From a virus (lineage: Duplodnaviria; Caudoviricetes): a stretch of 29,281 bases of DNA. Below the pieces are notes generated by a model. That model saw only the letters and a program-made list of their open reading frames with translations, had not been told where the DNA came from and did no database searches. The position numbers and the translations under genes are program-made. Where the stretch lies: the IMG/VR virus record IMGVR_UViG_3300020042_007467, positions 1 to 29,281 of that record. The stretch is one strand, 5' to 3'. Shown in pieces: positions 22,560 to 28,008 of the stretch; the first letter of the stretch is position 1, and every line of letters begins with the position of its first letter.

Positions 22560-22750
22560 ATGCTCAGAAAAAATGGGTGAAAAATTTTTTGATTTGGAAA
22601 CCGGCGGAAACGAAAAACGCTTGGAAAGTTTTGAAAGTTGGAAAAATTAGATACGGTTGTGCGCCGATCTAAATCGGCACCGGGCCGCGGATAAAAAGAT
22701 CTGTTTACACGAAGCTTTTGGGCGTTTTGGTGGTGGTGTGGGTGAGAATT
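22560..22750. other. Non-coding strand-switch region, possible packaging site or genome end
   Basis: Divergence point upstream of the terminase genes; eight GAAA-initiated A-tracts at 22567-22646 and a GCCGAT-CTAA-ATCGGC palindrome at 22663-22678. Confidence 0.4.
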
Positions 22751-22751
22751 C

Positions 22752-22760
22752 TGATAGTCT
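22752..22760 (+). promoter_or_regulatory. Putative extended -10 promoter TG-A-TAGTCT for the first early gene
   Basis: Predicted start about 22767 coincides with hairpin GTTACCG-AAATA-CGGCAAC, followed by SD GAGAGGA. Confidence 0.4.
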
Positions 22761-22802
22761 GTTCTTGTTACCGAAATACGGCAACGGAGAGGAAGCGAAC
22801 AA

Positions 22803-22910
22803 ATGTTCGTAAATGTATGGCAACCAAAAGTAATCGTATGTCGCGAGTGTGGCTACGAAATTTACATTGATAGCAATTGCGAAAATTGCGCAACTAAGGA
22901 GAGCAACTAA
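22803..22910 (+). CDS. Zinc-ribbon microprotein (35 aa)
   Basis: MFVNVWQPKVIVCRECGYEIYIDSNCENCATKESN; CxxC...CxxC, SD GAGAGGA, TAATG coupling to the next gene. Confidence 0.7.
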   Translation: MFVNVWQPKVIVCRECGYEIYIDSNCENCATKESN

Positions 22911-23197
22911 TGAGTAAGAAGAACGCACACACCGACCGCGTGCCAGTAGCAGGGCAACCATACGCTAACGATTACCTAGTTGGCGAAATTGTGGAGGTAT
23001 CTCCACGCCTCACCGCACAGAATGGCAAAGAGTATTACCGCTTTGGAATTGTAATTCTGATGATTACCGCGCCAGAGAACGAGAACGCGCAAGCGCTTGT
23101 TATCGGTGAAGTGATTTACCGACAGGCAACGCCTCACCGCAAAGCAGACGGCACTTGGAATGTGCTAAAGAACGCAAGCGCTAAGGGGGTGAAATAA
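22910..23197 (+). CDS. Hypothetical early protein (95 aa)
   Basis: AAGGAG SD; coupled at both ends; beta-rich. Confidence 0.8.
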   Translation: MSKKNAHTDRVPVAGQPYANDYLVGEIVEVSPRLTAQNGKEYYRFGIVILMITAPENENAQALVIGEVIYRQATPHRKADGTWNVLKNASAKGVK

Positions 23198-23280
23198 TGT
23201 TCAAGTGTCCTTTGTGTAAAGCAACCTCAAAAGACTTCACAATCAAATACTTTTGTATGTGTCGAGTCTCTAAAAAATAG
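23197..23280 (+). CDS. Cys-rich microprotein (27 aa)
   Basis: MFKCPLCKATSKDFTIKYFCMCRVSKK; AAGGGGGTG SD, TAATG overlap. Confidence 0.6.
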   Translation: MFKCPLCKATSKDFTIKYFCMCRVSKK

Positions 23281-23286
23281 CACCAC

Positions 23287-23314
23287 CGCCCTAGGTATGG
23301 CGTGAAACTACCTA
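23287..23314 (+). ncRNA. 28-nt pseudoknot element, copy 1
   Basis: CGCC-C-TAGGTA-T-GGCG-TGAAAC-TACCTA. Confidence 0.75.
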
Positions 23315-23345
23315 CCAAACAAACAACTATCTAAGGAGATTCAAA

Positions 23346-23687
23346 TTGTATACACACACCGATCCAGAATCAGGCGAGGTTATTTACACTTGCCCGCTTT
23401 GTTCAGAGGCTATGCTTTACTGGCAGGAGGGCGCACACAACGCCCGCAAGCACCTAAACAAATTCCTCTCTTACGCCTACAACGTGGAGGGAACGCGCGA
23501 ATTTATTTGTTGCGAGGGTTGCGCCGTTTACGTTATTGAAAATTGGGAATTGGTCAAGAACGGCGAACATAACCAATGGCTAAATGATCCCGCGAAATAC
23601 GAGAGCGACATAGCGATTACTCTGAAATTTAGTAACGCCTCACTCTTTGAGAATGGTTGCGACCTTTGTAACGACCGAGTAAACTAG
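23346..23687 (+). CDS. Cys/His-rich hypothetical protein (113 aa)
   Basis: TTG start after AAGGAGAT; CPLC...H...H, CEGC and CDLC. Confidence 0.8.
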   Translation: MYTHTDPESGEVIYTCPLCSEAMLYWQEGAHNARKHLNKFLSYAYNVEGTREFICCEGCAVYVIENWELVKNGEHNQWLNDPAKYESDIAITLKFSNASLFENGCDLCNDRVN

Positions 23688-23692
23688 AACCA

Positions 23693-23720
23693 CCACCTAG
23701 GCAAGTGGCTAAACGGCCTA
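23693..23720 (+). ncRNA. 28-nt pseudoknot element, copy 2
   Basis: CCAC-C-TAGGCA-A-GTGG-CTAAAC-GGCCTA. Confidence 0.75.
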
Positions 23721-23752
23721 ACCACAATCACACACAAACAAAGGATAAAAGA

Positions 23753-24115
23753 ATGACTATTTCAATTCCAGAACCAATCACCACCATTCACCCGCCACGC
23801 CGTTACCGCTATTCAACGGAGTGGGAGCAACTAATCTACAGATCTGGCCATTGGTTCAGTAAGAGCGCTATGGGCTTTTCTGGATCGCGGATCCTGTGGG
23901 GAACGTTGCGCCCGATTGCCGGTGATAATTTCACATTCATTACTAGCGAGGAGCGCAATGGTGAACGCCGTTACTCGGTGCGCGAGTGGTATCCAAACGG
24001 CGTTTACACTCTGGGCGAATTCATGGAGCATCCAACCCGATCCGCAGCTTTGCGCGCACAAGCCAAATACCACAAAGAGGAGGAAGATTACGTCAAAAGC
24101 TTTGATAACAAATAA
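23753..24115 (+). CDS. Hypothetical early protein (120 aa)
   Basis: Start placed at ATG 23753 after AAAGGA; GHWFS...GSRI...FITSE...RRYSVR. Confidence 0.8.
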   Translation: MTISIPEPITTIHPPRRYRYSTEWEQLIYRSGHWFSKSAMGFSGSRILWGTLRPIAGDNFTFITSEERNGERRYSVREWYPNGVYTLGEFMEHPTRSAALRAQAKYHKEEEDYVKSFDNK

Positions 24116-24123
24116 ATAACAAA

Positions 24124-24151
24124 GCGCCTGGGTATGCGTTGAAACTACCCT
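24124..24151 (+). ncRNA. 28-nt pseudoknot element, copy 3
   Basis: GCGC-C-TGGGTA-T-GCGT-TGAAAC-TACCCT. Confidence 0.75.
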
Positions 24152-24206
24152 CAATCAACTAAACTAATTACATAGCCAATAACGGCTACTAAACAAGGAG
24201 ATACAG

Positions 24207-24440
24207 ATGAACGCAGAAATTACACTAAGCCCGGACTTCACCGATTTGGTTTTCACATGGAGTGGAGGCGCATACATTGATGTTTGGTTTTCACACCCTA
24301 GCAACAATGATCCGGCGGGCGCGGTTATAAATGTTTATGACTACGCTAAGGGCAAGCCCTCAATTCCGTTCACGCCTAAAGCAATGGAACGCGCTTGTAA
24401 GCGTTATGTTCGGGCGCTTGAAAATGGAACGGCAGAATAA
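24207..24440 (+). CDS. Hypothetical early protein (77 aa)
   Basis: AAGGAGATACAGATG leader; FTWSGGAYIDV...VINVYDY. Confidence 0.85.
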   Translation: MNAEITLSPDFTDLVFTWSGGAYIDVWFSHPSNNDPAGAVINVYDYAKGKPSIPFTPKAMERACKRYVRALENGTAE

Positions 24441-24447
24441 AAGCTCT

Positions 24448-24475
24448 TACCCTGGCTATGGTGTAAAACTAGCCA
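24448..24475 (+). ncRNA. 28-nt pseudoknot element, copy 4
   Basis: TACC-C-TGGCTA-T-GGTG-TAAAAC-TAGCCA. Confidence 0.75.
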
Positions 24476-24505
24476 CACACACAAAACAATCTAAGGAGAT
24501 ACAAA

Positions 24506-24655
24506 ATGAAATACGGAATTCGATCGATCGCAGCTTTGCTCGGTTTGCTAGGTTTCACTAGCACGATTGGCGCGTTGCTCTCTGGCCATTCCCCGGTTGC
24601 TAGTTTTAGCCTGGTTTTGGTTGCGGGGATCACTCTCGTGGCAGCTCACGATTAG
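24506..24655 (+). CDS. Small membrane protein (49 aa, two hydrophobic segments)
   Basis: MKYGIRSIAALLGLLGFTSTIGALLSGHSPVASFSLVLVAGITLVAAHD after AAGGAGATACAAAATG; not in the ORF track. Confidence 0.8.
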   Translation: MKYGIRSIAALLGLLGFTSTIGALLSGHSPVASFSLVLVAGITLVAAHD

Positions 24656-24730
24656 ACTAAAAGTTTATTTCATCGTTACACAAATGTTACATAAATAAGT
24701 TGGCATTACTCAACAGAGTGTGCCTATAAT
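24653..24730 (+). promoter_or_regulatory. Composite promoter: palindrome, GTTAC-N6-GTTAC, -35 and -10
   Basis: TAGACT-AAA-AGTTTA 24653-24667; GTTAC-N6-GTTAC 24675-24690; TTGGCA 24700-24705; TATAAT 24725-24730 (19-bp spacer). Confidence 0.7.
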
Positions 24731-24774
24731 TAGAGGGTAGCCAAATTGGTTGCCACATAATAAGGAGATACAAA

Positions 24775-25032
24775 ATGGAAAACAGAATCACAAAGCACCT
24801 GGAATTGAACGGCCTAGACCTAATGACGGCTAGGGTTCAGGTTCAGGATTTCGATTGGCAGGTAAAGCAAATTCTTGAGACAGGCGCAGAGTATCGCGAT
24901 AGCGCGACGGCAGGCGCTCTTGTGGAGAGCATTGCGACATTCTGGGCAGACCTCTGCCTCGTTGGCCTCCACGAGGCAACAGACCCTTACTCGCTTTACT
25001 CACTTGCGATTGAGGAAGAGGAGGTGGCGTAA
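24775..25032 (+). CDS. Hypothetical early protein (85 aa)
   Basis: AAGGAGATACAAAATG leader. Confidence 0.85.
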   Translation: MENRITKHLELNGLDLMTARVQVQDFDWQVKQILETGAEYRDSATAGALVESIATFWADLCLVGLHEATDPYSLYSLAIEEEEVA

Positions 25033-25214
25033 TGCCAAAGTTTATTTTGGAAACGCGCCGTATCACGCATTACACAGTAGTCATTGAGGCGGATACCATT
25101 GAGGCAGCCGAGGCAGAGGTTGAACAATGGGTTGCAGATGACTTTGAAAAGTTTGAGAGCGGTTGCGAATGGCTTGACGGCGTTTGGCAAGAGGATGAGG
25201 AGGTGAACGCATGA
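25032..25214 (+). CDS. Small acidic protein (60 aa)
   Basis: GGAGGT SD, TAATG overlap; YTVVIEADTIEAAEA. Confidence 0.8.
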   Translation: MPKFILETRRITHYTVVIEADTIEAAEAEVEQWVADDFEKFESGCEWLDGVWQEDEEVNA

Positions 25215-25318
25215 ATGGTTATTGCTTGCTAGGGGAACACTCTGGTTGCCCTGATACATTGCGGGATGAGTATTTGTGCGCTTGCCAATGTCACATTGAG
25301 AGGGAGGTGGGCGCGTGA
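25211..25318 (+). CDS. Cys/His microprotein (35 aa)
   Basis: MNGYCLLGEHSGCPDTLRDEYLCACQCHIEREVGA; GGAGGTG SD, ATGA overlap, CxCxCH motif. Confidence 0.75.
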   Translation: MNGYCLLGEHSGCPDTLRDEYLCACQCHIEREVGA

Positions 25319-25455
25319 TCGGGCGCGTCTGCCCGGAATGTGGATCGGCAGCTGAGGAGGCCAAAGCGTTCAATTATTTAGACGGCGATTTGCGTTGCGT
25401 GATTGACGGAATGCCATTACACTTATACATAGATACACCAAACGAAAATAACTAA
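25315..25455 (+). CDS. Zinc-ribbon-like microprotein (46 aa)
   Basis: GTG start with GTGA overlap and GGAGGT SD; MIGRVCPECGSAAEEAKAFNYLDGDLRCVIDGMPLHLYIDTPNENN. Confidence 0.7.
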   Translation: MIGRVCPECGSAAEEAKAFNYLDGDLRCVIDGMPLHLYIDTPNENN

Positions 25456-25465
25456 GGAGATACAA

Positions 25466-25708
25466 ATGACTACATACGATAGCCTCGCGGTTGCGATTGA
25501 GATACAAGCGGAACGCACGAGATCAAAACAAATGGTTCAGGATTTGGAGGCGCTCGCGGTTGCAGTAAAAGCTCGCGCGGATAATCACCGGGCTAGTATG
25601 GATAGCGCAACCAATAGCGAATTTGATTATTTGGAGGGTCTTGTGGACGGCTATGAAATTTGCTACAATCAGATTATGGAGATTTTGAGAGGAGATGAAA
25701 ATGCCTAA
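25466..25708 (+). CDS. Hypothetical helical protein (80 aa)
   Basis: AAGGAGATACAAATG leader. Confidence 0.85.
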   Translation: MTTYDSLAVAIEIQAERTRSKQMVQDLEALAVAVKARADNHRASMDSATNSEFDYLEGLVDGYEICYNQIMEILRGDENA

Positions 25709-25805
25709 ACGCCCTGATAGCAAGAGAACGATCGTTGCCAAAGTGAGAGCGGTTGAGCTGCGCAAAGCACGCAAAACTAAATTGGCTTTTGGAACCACAA
25801 AGTAG
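25701..25805 (+). CDS. Basic microprotein (34 aa)
   Basis: MPKRPDSKRTIVAKVRAVELRKARKTKLAFGTTK; GAGGAG SD; tandem TAG TAG stop. Confidence 0.7.
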   Translation: MPKRPDSKRTIVAKVRAVELRKARKTKLAFGTTK

Positions 25806-25818
25806 TAGCATTGTAGTA

Positions 25819-25846
25819 TCACCTAAGCAAGTGTCAAAACTGCTTA
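25819..25846 (+). ncRNA. 28-nt pseudoknot element, copy 5
   Basis: TCAC-C-TAAGCA-A-GTGT-CAAAAC-TGCTTA. Confidence 0.7.
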
Positions 25847-25874
25847 CCACACACACAACTATAAGGAGATACAA

Positions 25875-26120
25875 ATGGCACACCTAGTAACACATTTAGT
25901 AATCACAGTAAGCCACACAACCGGGCAGGTTGCTTTTGACGGCGACGGCACGAGGGAATGGATTAGGCGCTTGTTTGATCCACAGACAACCACTTACGAT
26001 TATGATGAAGATCAAATGGTTGCAGTTTCATCGGAGATCGAACGAGCTGCGTTAGACAAGTTGATCGAATTGGGCATACTTGTAGACGGATTAGATTACG
26101 ACAATTGGCAGGAGAGATAA
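25875..26120 (+). CDS. Hypothetical early protein (81 aa)
   Basis: AAGGAGATACAAATG leader. Confidence 0.85.
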   Translation: MAHLVTHLVITVSHTTGQVAFDGDGTREWIRRLFDPQTTTYDYDEDQMVAVSSEIERAALDKLIELGILVDGLDYDNWQER

Positions 26121-26122
26121 CA

Positions 26123-26728
26123 ATGGAACAACCGCTTTACATTATGAAACTTAGCTTGACGGAACGCGTAGCCGTTTACCCGGATACGTCTACTTATTTG
26201 TTGGAAGACATTATTGGTGAGGAGTATGGCGTGATCGTGCTTGATGGGCCGCGAGGTCTTACTGCCGTTTATGGTGATACTCACCATTTGGAGGATGATA
26301 TCCGTAGGTTGGCAGATCGTTTTTATCGTGGCAGCTCTGGTTGGTGGGATAGGCGTAATAGGGCGATCCATATGTATCTCAACTTGTCTGGCTTTGATAG
26401 TGTGATCCACACTTTACAGGGCCACTCACAGGGGGATTGGGCGGAGGTTGTGCTATTCCATAAGCGCAATGTTGATTGGCACGTTGATGGATATAACATT
26501 CTTGATACTTTGCCATATGTCAATGCCTGGTTTGCGGGTGATATTTATTCGATCGTGCGCGAGAGCTTTGATACTTATGTGAACGCAACTGATCCTGATG
26601 ACACCATTACCCGGTGGAATGAGGTTGATGCGTTCCATTGCCAGATGATGTTGGACATTCGTGCGGAGCTGCCTAATCTGGCTGCGATCGAATTTGGTAT
26701 CCCTCGCGCGGATTGGGAGATCGTCTAA
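26123..26728 (+). CDS. Hypothetical protein (201 aa)
   Basis: Start placed at ATG 26123 after AGGAGAG; LQGHSQGDWAEV and AWFAGDIY motifs; followed by a terminator. Confidence 0.85.
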   Translation: MEQPLYIMKLSLTERVAVYPDTSTYLLEDIIGEEYGVIVLDGPRGLTAVYGDTHHLEDDIRRLADRFYRGSSGWWDRRNRAIHMYLNLSGFDSVIHTLQGHSQGDWAEVVLFHKRNVDWHVDGYNILDTLPYVNAWFAGDIYSIVRESFDTYVNATDPDDTITRWNEVDAFHCQMMLDIRAELPNLAAIEFGIPRADWEIV

Positions 26729-26747: not shown

Positions 26748-26776
26748 ATCCCTGGCCCTCCGGCCGGGGATTTTTT
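26748..26776 (+). terminator. Intrinsic terminator
   Basis: ATCCCTGGCC-CTCC-GGCCGGGGAT followed by a T-run. Confidence 0.85.
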
Positions 26777-26830
26777 GTTACCAAATTGTTATCAAATTGG
26801 CTTGATCCGCGAGCGTTTTTTTGTTAGAAT
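26777..26830 (+). promoter_or_regulatory. Promoter with GTTAC-N6-GTTAT box
   Basis: Box 26777-26792, 9 bp, TTGATC 26802-26807, 17 bp, (TGT)TAGAAT 26825-26830. Confidence 0.7.
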
Positions 26831-26852
26831 GGATTTGGTGCCTGATTTATTT

Positions 26853-26941
26853 TAGACTAAAAGTCTAGACCTTTGGTCTATTTGGCCGTTACCTAATCGT
26901 TATAATTGGAGCTTGCATTTTCATGCGATCTGTGAGAGAAT
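26853..26941 (+). promoter_or_regulatory. Composite promoter: two palindromes, GTTAC-N6-GTTAT, -35 and -10
   Basis: TAGACT-AAA-AGTCTA 26853-26867; TAGACC-TTT-GGTCTA 26866-26880; box 26888-26903; 9 bp; TTGCAT 26913-26918; 17 bp; (TGA)GAGAAT 26936-26941. Confidence 0.65.
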
Positions 26942-26961
26942 TGGTTTGATGCCCGGATCGG

Positions 26962-26980
26962 ATTAGACCAAAAGTCTAAT
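26962..26980. promoter_or_regulatory. Palindromic operator-like site between convergent promoters
   Basis: ATTAGAC-CAAAA-GTCTAAT flanked by direct repeats CCCGGATC at 26952 and 26982. Confidence 0.65.
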
Positions 26981-26986
26981 TCCCGG

Positions 26987-27040
26987 ATCTTACACTATGC
27001 AGCTGATCTTGTCAAGCGGTTTAGGTAACAAAATGGTAAC
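26987..27040 (-). promoter_or_regulatory. Minus-strand promoter TTGACA-17-TAAGAT with GTTAC-N6-GTTAC box
   Basis: Box 27040-27025, 9 bp, TTGACA 27015-27010, 17 bp, TAAGAT 26992-26987. Confidence 0.75.
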
Positions 27041-27189
27041 AATAAGTGAGGTCACCAGGCGGGCGTAGGCAGACTTTTAGAGGTGTCTGTGTATGATTAC
27101 CTATCCGAGGCATAAAAGCCGTCTACGAGGCGCAGGAGGCTTATTTGGATGATTTCGATCTGGCGCGAGATCGTAGCTTGAAACAGATC

Positions 27190-27253
27190 GTTACCAATCT
27201 GTTACATTTATTTTAGCTTTTTATTATGTTTGATCTAATAAGTGTGCTAAATT
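27190..27253 (+). promoter_or_regulatory. GTTAC-N6-GTTAC box and extended -10 (TG-C-TAAATT)
   Basis: Box 27190-27205; -10 at 27248-27253. The box is about one helical turn further upstream than in the other copies. Confidence 0.55.
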
Positions 27254-27297
27254 GAATATATTAGATAAACACATAACAGATAAGGAGATCTAATCAA

Positions 27298-27786: not shown

Positions 27787-27807
27787 GCTGCGTTCTCTAC
27801 CTCTAAC

Positions 27808-27860
27808 ATATATACTATTATAATATATATATATATAATATATTATATAAGTATGTATAT
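27808..27860. repeat. Very AT-rich (TA)n tract
   Basis: ATATATACTATTATAATATATATATATATAATATATTATATAAGTATGTATAT inside a ~300-bp intergenic region. Confidence 0.85.
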
Positions 27861-28008
27861 GAGATCTTTACCCTTATACTCGAATATGATCGGTTTTGAT
27901 CTCTAAAATGATCCAAAAGTAATTGAATATGATTTTGGCAGCTCTTAGCCTGGATAATTGTGCTATGAGATCTGCAAAAAATTATAGTAGAATTATTTTG
28001 AAATAACA

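Follow-up and report, generated by a model that had tools for sequence, protein, structure and literature searches.

The window analysed here, a stretch of 29,281 nucleotides (nt) covering positions 1 to 29,281 of IMG/VR record IMGVR_UViG_3300020042_007467 (Duplodnaviria; Caudoviricetes), is a 29 kb fragment of a siphovirus genome. Its terminase-to-tail genes lie on the minus strand, and from position 22803 onward the plus strand carries a divergent cluster of small early-type open reading frames (ORFs; 22803..26728), which are mostly without family matches and have a GC content of 47%. Within this cluster five copies of a 28-nt element are dispersed on the plus strand at distances of 324-1371 nt, each of which can form an H-type pseudoknot of two interleaved stems, S1 and S2. 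A sequence-only reading of the window had proposed these copies, and their positions, strand and shared geometry were all confirmed.

Copy 1 (23287..23314) pairs CGCC with GGCG in S1 and TAGGTA with TACCTA in S2, contains a bridging C and the loop TGAAAC, and starts 6 nt past the TAG of a 27-codon ORF (23197-23280). Copy 2 (23693..23720; S1 CCAC/GTGG, S2 TAGGCA/GGCCTA) lies 5 nt past a TAG, copy 3 (24124..24151; S1 GCGC/GCGT, S2 TGGGTA/TACCCT) 8 nt past the TAA of the DUF7447/phrog_4655 gene (23753-24115), copy 4 (24448..24475; S1 TACC/GGTG, S2 TGGCTA/TAGCCA) 7 nt past a TAA, and copy 5 (25819..25846; S1 TCAC/GTGT, S2 TAAGCA/TGCTTA) 13 nt past the first of two tandem TAG codons, in agreement with the 5-13 nt read at the outset. 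The initial statement that pairing is kept despite sequence change held overall and failed at single positions: in copy 2 the junction pair of S2, nearly invariant elsewhere, is an A-G mismatch, S2 of copy 3 ends in U-U and its outer S1 pair is G-U, and the outer S1 pair is U-G in copy 4 and U-U in copy 5. Each copy is followed by a plus-strand linker with a ribosome-binding site. The linkers after copies 1 (23315..23345; also G-poor and listed as repeat family D1/D2), 4 (24476..24505) and 5 (25847..25874) are A/C-rich and carry AAGGAG, that after copy 2 (23721..23752) is A/C-rich and carries AAGGA, and that after copy 3 (24152..24206) contains a separate 5-base-pair (bp) hairpin about 22 nt downstream in addition to AAGGAG. 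The next start codons follow at 31, 32, 55, 30 and 28 nt. The copies are confined to junctions with their own ribosome-binding site, the last gene has none after it, and in none of the five does a U-tract directly follow the stem.

A search with the pattern shared by the copies gave five matches in the window, with 0.03 expected in shuffled sequence, and none further with up to two mismatches; the pattern was built from the copies themselves, so that this comparison is post hoc. A covariance model, the check originally suggested, matched exactly the five copies at 28.7-35.8 bits (next match 12.3 bits), these copies being part of its training set. Neither search found a sixth copy in the window. 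The pairing geometry alone is common, since in each shuffled window a loose descriptor hits about 290-380 sites, and a version including the C and AAA hits 2-13; therefore the test had to come from relatives, and significance rests on the shared sequence together with the geometry and on relatives outside the window. Folding restricted to nested structures did not single out the copies (z-scores -0.53 to +0.08), in keeping with a pseudoknot. The Rfam scan of the window returned no family and no ribozyme at the five copies, without support for the suggested self-cleavage. An obelisk match was rejected as a chance coding match.

For the relatives, four pattern scans of IMG/VR (an estimated ~200, 810, 2800 and 150 stored stretches) and one of GTDB (69 matches) were evaluated; all family counts given below are among the matches listed, and kinship of contigs was handled by de-duplication only, without a tree. 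With three S1 pairs unconstrained, complete Watson-Crick pairing at these positions was seen in 36 of 59 and 54 of 86 distinct elements, and another 20 and 29, respectively, had two of the three pairs. With four pairs of S2 left free, 54 of 114 elements were fully Watson-Crick, compared with 9.1 for shuffled arms (maximum 19 in 2000). Furthermore, a strand asymmetry was observed, in that G-U pairs outnumber the mirror mismatch A-C by 28 to 2 and 16 to 2. In an alignment of 80 sequences 8 of 10 pairs exhibit double-sided changes, the members having been selected for pairing. The independent covariation in relatives and the preference of G-U over A-C support the earlier proposal of a folded single-stranded structure with two interleaved stems, and a double-stranded DNA (dsDNA) palindrome was rejected. 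Where the loops were left free, the bridging C was retained in 32 of 33 elements and the A, A, A and C in 33, 32, 32 and 32 of 33, so that the invariance noticed in the five copies extends nearly unchanged to the relatives.

The element is a widespread phage family. Cultured carriers include phages of Staphylococcus, Clostridium, Lactobacillus, Geobacillus, Arthrobacter, Microbacterium, Mycobacterium, several cyanobacteria, Roseobacter, Paracoccus and Moraxella as well as crAss-like phages; among these the element sequence itself was inspected in phiNM4, Molivia, Count, S-EIV1, LMM01 and Cr-LKS4. One query pattern gave no match in 5,426 E. coli genomes versus 137 phage records. The GTDB matches are rich in Saccharibacteria (13 loci), several genomes of which hold two or three copies among consecutive small genes; a Methanobrevibacter locus (L517) holds three, and in a Campylobacteraceae locus (L553) the copy stands between apparently chromosomal genes. 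In one lineage of Vibrio phages (27 records) the match falls inside an annotated hypothetical ORF and would, if real, point to a further host that lacks RNase J. Many carrier genomes are metagenome-assembled genomes (MAGs), and the list of hosts is skewed by the AT-richness of the patterns.

Position relative to genes was analysed for 450 flanked copies. A stop codon of a frame of at least 60 codons, a threshold that short ORFs escape, was found from -3 to 40 nt upstream of 308 copies and was missing within 40 nt for 142. The spacing was 4-9 nt in 194 of the 308 and 3 nt or less in only 7, giving a sharp minimum of 4-5 nt, while the tie to the next start is loose; harder de-duplication left 263 of 381 with a qualifying stop, 161 of them at 4-9 nt. 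On the opposite strand, 16 of 298 copies were near a stop, as against 164 on the element's own strand. Intrinsic terminators in the same loci have no such edge, since of 81 examined 10 lie within 3 nt of the stop and 12 at 4-9 nt. TAA dominates among the upstream stops and TGA is under-used (15 of 231 versus 573 of 2093). Classes of ORF orientation were symmetric (193 of 222 upstream and 189 of 222 downstream co-oriented); they are crude, include mis-called loci such as two window copies, and were not used for direction. No common gene family emerged among 65 upstream and 65 downstream neighbour proteins. Ribonucleotide reductase recurs upstream and a scaffold gene downstream; ribonucleotide reductase, phrog_1221 and phrog_3677 each stay constant upstream of differing downstream genes, and the scaffold gene likewise stays constant behind differing upstream genes. 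The element occupies the scaffold-gene leader in phiNM4 and at loci L502, L529 and L560, and some copies precede the gene of a single-stranded DNA (ssDNA)-binding protein. A terminator-like hairpin with a U-run stands directly upstream of 11 of 387 clusters, compared with 1 of 384 control sites, and about 7 of these look clear. At L013 (3864-4075) a pistol ribozyme just past a stop codon is followed by two pseudoknot copies and then a Shine-Dalgarno sequence. Two copies were also seen within the intervening segment of a permuted, two-piece transfer-messenger RNA (tmRNA), the second of them 3 nt before the coding piece (L522:1892-2230 and L128:3892-4231, both minus strand; crAss-like cr7_1 and cr124_1).

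The closest likeness was found to coremin, also called xrRNA-C (xrRNA, exonuclease-resistant RNA), an Xrn1-blocking RNA of beny-, cucumo- and other eukaryotic RNA viruses, for which a mutational map has been published (PMC6546385) and which also stalls scanning eukaryotic ribosomes (PMC10520033); according to the coremin literature, its structure was unsolved as of 2023. Coremin shares with the family a 4-bp hairpin with a C-G closing pair and a dispensable outer pair, a loop that begins with a pyrimidine and ends in A followed by a base other than C (up to 8 nt being functional in coremin), a spacer resembling NN-AAAC-U-R-C and a position just past a stop codon. The C-G closing pair of S1 is present in all five window copies and in 77 of 80 aligned members, pairs 2 and 3 of S1 covary freely, and the outer pair is unpaired in 18 of 80. 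The first two spacer bases are free and AAAC-U is near-invariant (32-33 of 33 when left free). With loops of 8-9 nt the spacer measures 6 nt in 365 cases, is longer in 8 and shorter in one, and the last loop base is C in only 10 of 358. Conservation in the family thus tracks the published coremin map with respect to the closing, free and outer pairs, the spacer and AAAC-U. Moreover, 4 of 387 family clusters match 17 of the 20 coremin bases exactly. The base after AAAC-U is A in 19% and G, then paired, in 80%, where the coremin consensus reads NN-AAAC-U-A-C; the window spacers end in TAC (copies 1 and 3), TAG (copy 4), TGC (copy 5) and GGC (copy 2).

The two also differ. The second loop base of the family is U or C instead of G, its loop is paired throughout with the 3' strand (5-6 bp) and no second hairpin is present, and it occurs in dsDNA phages and bacterial hosts without Xrn1, where its resistance is predicted. 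Of the coremins of RNA-virus type, 48 of 56 have the second hairpin. A Watson-Crick variant, xrRNA-WCC (PMC10321173), likewise builds a canonical loop-to-spacer pseudoknot on the coremin scaffold; as reported there, it has a 4-nt loop, a G bridge and a 3-bp S2 in another register (8-18, 7-19, 6-20) and needs the second hairpin. The element would act like coremin, yet by the published rules it is not a member. We infer one fold with two solutions, namely a short loop with an adjacent hairpin or a long loop that pairs with the 3' strand; locus L505 carries an intermediate form with a 9-nt loop beside a canonical family copy.

Literal coremin sequences were searched as well and gave 100 IMG/VR stretches. 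In 41 of these the coremin is followed by a short hairpin of 2-4 bp with an AGACA-type loop and a covarying stem, and, where the flank allowed, by a scaffold-like ORF 60-94 nt further on; the 41 represent a few related lineages of gut phages. The remaining 59 resemble RNA viruses where sampled, five loci giving matches to capsid, RNA-dependent RNA polymerase or tRNA-like sequences. PHROGs annotation identified one hairpin-bearing record (G051) as a tailed phage, with genes for terminase, portal, scaffold and major head proteins; its coremin lies between the minor head gene and the scaffold gene and precedes the start of the latter by 86 nt. Streptococcus phage Javan351 has the same leader, and Pfam Terminase_6N had no match in four coremin-bearing records. 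Literal coremin and the window-type element fill the same slot in scaffold leaders, the latter in other Firmicutes phages. Literal coremins with the short second hairpin were noted in scaffold leaders of gut Firmicutes-type tailed phages at L571, L578, L634, L652, L669:7593-7612 (minus strand), L668:3005-3025 and many of L670-L783. These coremins often sit right behind a hairpin with a U-run, and the leaders repeat a unit of a small AGACA-loop hairpin and AAACTG two or three times, for which Rfam gave no match at E<=1.

In the reading that we favor, at a probability of roughly 45%, the coremin-type knot would shield the downstream cistron as a one-way roadblock to 5'-to-3' decay, the nuclease probably being the host RNase J. 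On the mRNA each copy would adopt a compact H-pseudoknot of coremin type; once the upstream cistron had been cut and degraded in the 5'-to-3' direction, the knot would halt the nuclease and so preserve the gene behind it together with its ribosome-binding site. The predicted fold has an S1 of 3-4 bp closed by C-G, the bridging C in the groove of S2 and the AAA in the groove of S1, and three extra loop-to-3' base pairs may stand in for the second hairpin of coremin. In view of the position of the helicase on the ribosome, the stop spacing may mark the nearest position that a terminating ribosome leaves folded. We infer fold, nuclease and host here by comparison: the fold resembles a proven Xrn1 block, a flaviviral xrRNA stops bacterial RNase J1 (PMC5760640), and some contexts leave only a downstream beneficiary. 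Where copies stand behind terminator-like hairpins or the pistol ribozyme, only the downstream RNA needs shielding. Coremins of RNA-virus type are also found just past stops (37 of 60 within 40 nt, mostly at 6-18 nt), so that stop proximity fits a proven 5' barrier. The reading also draws on the literal coremins of DNA phages, on the 32 of 50 carrier genomes in which RNase J scored over the cut-off and on the query without a match in E. coli. Of the functions that the sequence-only reading had listed, a block to RNase J is thereby the best supported, by comparison only.

Several findings weigh against it. The second loop base is U in 352 of 358 elements, including all five window copies, C in 6 and never G. 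No second hairpin adjoins the window copies, and in the downstream 30-mers (n=454) hairpins at or below -3 kcal/mol are about as frequent (27.5%) as in shuffled sequence (24.7%); the Watson-Crick coremin, as reported, requires this hairpin for resistance, and pseudoknots of similar size of the beet western yellows virus (BWYV) type fail to stall Xrn1 (both PMC10321173). Among 50 carrier genomes examined from the 69 GTDB loci, RNase J scored over the cut-off in 32 and as a strong partial match in 2, while 15, including a Capnocytophaga isolate, show none and 1 was unscored. The carriers also include crAss-like and Moraxella phages. Promoters are not enriched upstream of the copies lacking a stop (3 of 140). 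Three further observations fit a role at a 3' end: a tRNA lies downstream of 15 copies, 8 of which end 2-4 nt before it; at least six U in the eight bases right after S2 were found in 57 of 387 clusters versus 10 and 7 in controls; and a convergent gene faces 10 of 271 copies, for example at L034.

These last observations lead to the main alternative, which we consider unlikely and in which the knot caps the upstream message: after a downstream cut, by RNase P at a tRNA or by RNase E/Y in an A/U- or A/C-rich linker, or after weak termination, it would form the 3' end with a tail too short for PNPase or RNase R. Such a cap would explain the tight tie to the upstream stop next to a loose one to the next start, the permuted tmRNA, the recurrence of one upstream gene with different downstream genes and the carriage by hosts without RNase J, and Molivia offers the order stop, 6 nt, element, 2 nt, tRNA-Gly. 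A plain hairpin would suffice for this purpose, however, leaving the invariant coremin-like loop bases unexplained, and copies right behind terminator-like hairpins or a ribozyme, the constant scaffold gene behind variable upstream genes and the window itself, where no copy follows the last gene or carries a U-tract, speak against it. Because every window copy has a gene on both sides, the window by itself does not separate the two readings, and they may coexist as a two-way boundary.

An improbable explanation directs the knot at the ribosome: placed at the mRNA entry channel of a terminating ribosome, it would stop sliding or aid release and thereby uncouple the translation of neighbouring genes. 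The sharp edge at 4-5 nt, which intrinsic terminators in these loci lack, the under-use of TGA, the stalling of scanning ribosomes by coremin (PMC10520033) and the restriction of window copies to junctions with their own ribosome-binding site would suit such an insulator. Exclusion and compaction also account for the edge, however, 142 of the 450 copies lack a qualifying stop within 40 nt (short ORFs being missed), and copies also lie in tRNA and tmRNA spacers.

Binding or processing by a phage or host protein, which we regard as quite improbable, finds precedents in the operator pseudoknot of T4 gene 32, likewise of small size and H-type topology with a single bridging base and an A-rich loop, and in the GP20 leaders. 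Copies before scaffold and ssDNA-binding protein genes suit this option, and GP20-b (RF03003) scored 33.2 bits on L560, under its gathering score of 36.2. A comparable short pseudoknot, with a UAAAA loop, is possible in the 5' half of its Rfam consensus, and GP20-b lies before phage scaffold genes as some window-type relatives do. It differs in needing a second hairpin and the scaffold context, in a longer bridge and in the lack of AAAC-U; it had no match at E<=5 in the window, whose copies precede small early ORFs rather than a scaffold (GP20) gene. Unlike the T4 operator, the family has no fixed partner gene, and it is spread over unrelated phages of many host phyla. Fremin 2023 reports 6 motifs before GP20 genes and 12 before GP32 genes, and GP20 is not treated in the main text of Weinberg 2017 (PMC5737381). 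The literature searches gave no paper on the window-type element or on coremin in phages, although the supplements of both studies could hold an unnamed candidate; the available part of PMC12397905 mentions neither phage nor coremin.

A pseudoknot-type intrinsic terminator or pause is very improbable: the U-tract enrichment concerns about 15% of clusters, from loci richer in AT (36% versus 41% GC), none of the five window copies has such a tract, and most copies are followed by co-oriented genes. Hardly more credit is due to a gene-cassette exchange junction at the DNA or ssDNA level, akin to PeSL or attC. Consecutive gene-element modules in the window and at L515, L517 and L567 and the turnover of neighbours around the element would agree with it; copies within one genome diverge in their stems, which weakens homologous crossover, no integrase is among the annotated proteins of the window, single copies stand before scaffold and tRNA genes, and the G-U bias fits RNA, though ssDNA remains compatible. 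ToxI pseudoknots share the small size and H-type topology, but a decoy for a type III toxin is barely conceivable, as is a frameshift or readthrough stimulator: the copies are dispersed without a tandem array and match no ToxI-type Rfam family, leaving this early suggestion without support, and recoding was rejected, since frames stay open for at least 30 codons past the stop in 39 of 231 cases, the same as in the -1 frame, slippery heptamers number 7 of 231 versus 4 in the control, frames close after a median of 13, 12 and 5 codons, and TAA dominates with TGA depleted. The luteoviral BWYV frameshift pseudoknot (PMC10321173) is comparable in its small size, H-type topology, single bridging base and A-rich loop; it needs a slippery site or readthrough frame, absent around the family.

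Regarding the remainder of the window, its terminase is nearest (44-46%) to that of Arthrobacter Amigovirus phages, followed by Clavibacter, Curtobacterium and Microbacterium phages among others, and because of this kinship an actinobacterial host is probable. The pattern and the covariance model found no pseudoknot element in four loci of terminase relatives, the search for relatives of two early proteins returned none, and a tRNA scan of the window was empty. The closest terminase relative shows a different pseudoknot-like geometry just before a Shine-Dalgarno sequence (L001:7757-7790, plus strand) without a covariance-model match. A GC-rich hairpin with a U-run (26749..26776, plus strand), read from the sequence and not among the features that a scan of the window listed, ends the early cluster. 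GTTAC-containing boxes with extended -10-like hexamers recur before early gene groups (22740-22770, 24676-24735, 26772-27045 and 27180-27260), together with a 34-nt inverted repeat at 26772/27012; these may be phage early promoters or operator sites. An extremely AT-rich, non-coding inverted repeat with 27-nt arms (27800-27865) is possibly an origin or genome-end feature.

On our analysis, the element is a real, widespread and new variant on a coremin-like theme, whose function is predicted. A bolder generalization, which we hold to be doubtful, is that coremin is one branch of a pan-viral pseudoknot family and not confined to eukaryotic RNA viruses: dsDNA phages of many bacterial phyla would use canonical coremin and the 28-nt form interchangeably, as the first xrRNAs of bacteria, to divide polycistronic messages into cistrons of separate stability, and the 28-nt form would be a minimal xrRNA, free of the second hairpin, whose extra base pairs reveal the coremin fold. 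So far xrRNAs have been described from eukaryotic viruses, and RNase J1 has been called an enzyme that they never naturally meet (PMC5760640). For structural work the covarying 28-mer, Watson-Crick throughout, is a good target, and it hints at the role of the second hairpin; cultured carriers with harmless hosts, such as Arthrobacter phage Molivia, Microbacterium phage Count, Mycobacterium smegmatis phage Labelle and Synechococcus phage S-EIV1, allow direct testing. A 28-nt mRNA stabilizer would, if the roadblock reading is true, be a useful part. In that case programmed exonuclease resistance would reach into bacteria through the phage family built on the coremin core and the literal coremins in head-gene leaders, and phages would gain a post-transcriptional control of gene stoichiometry.

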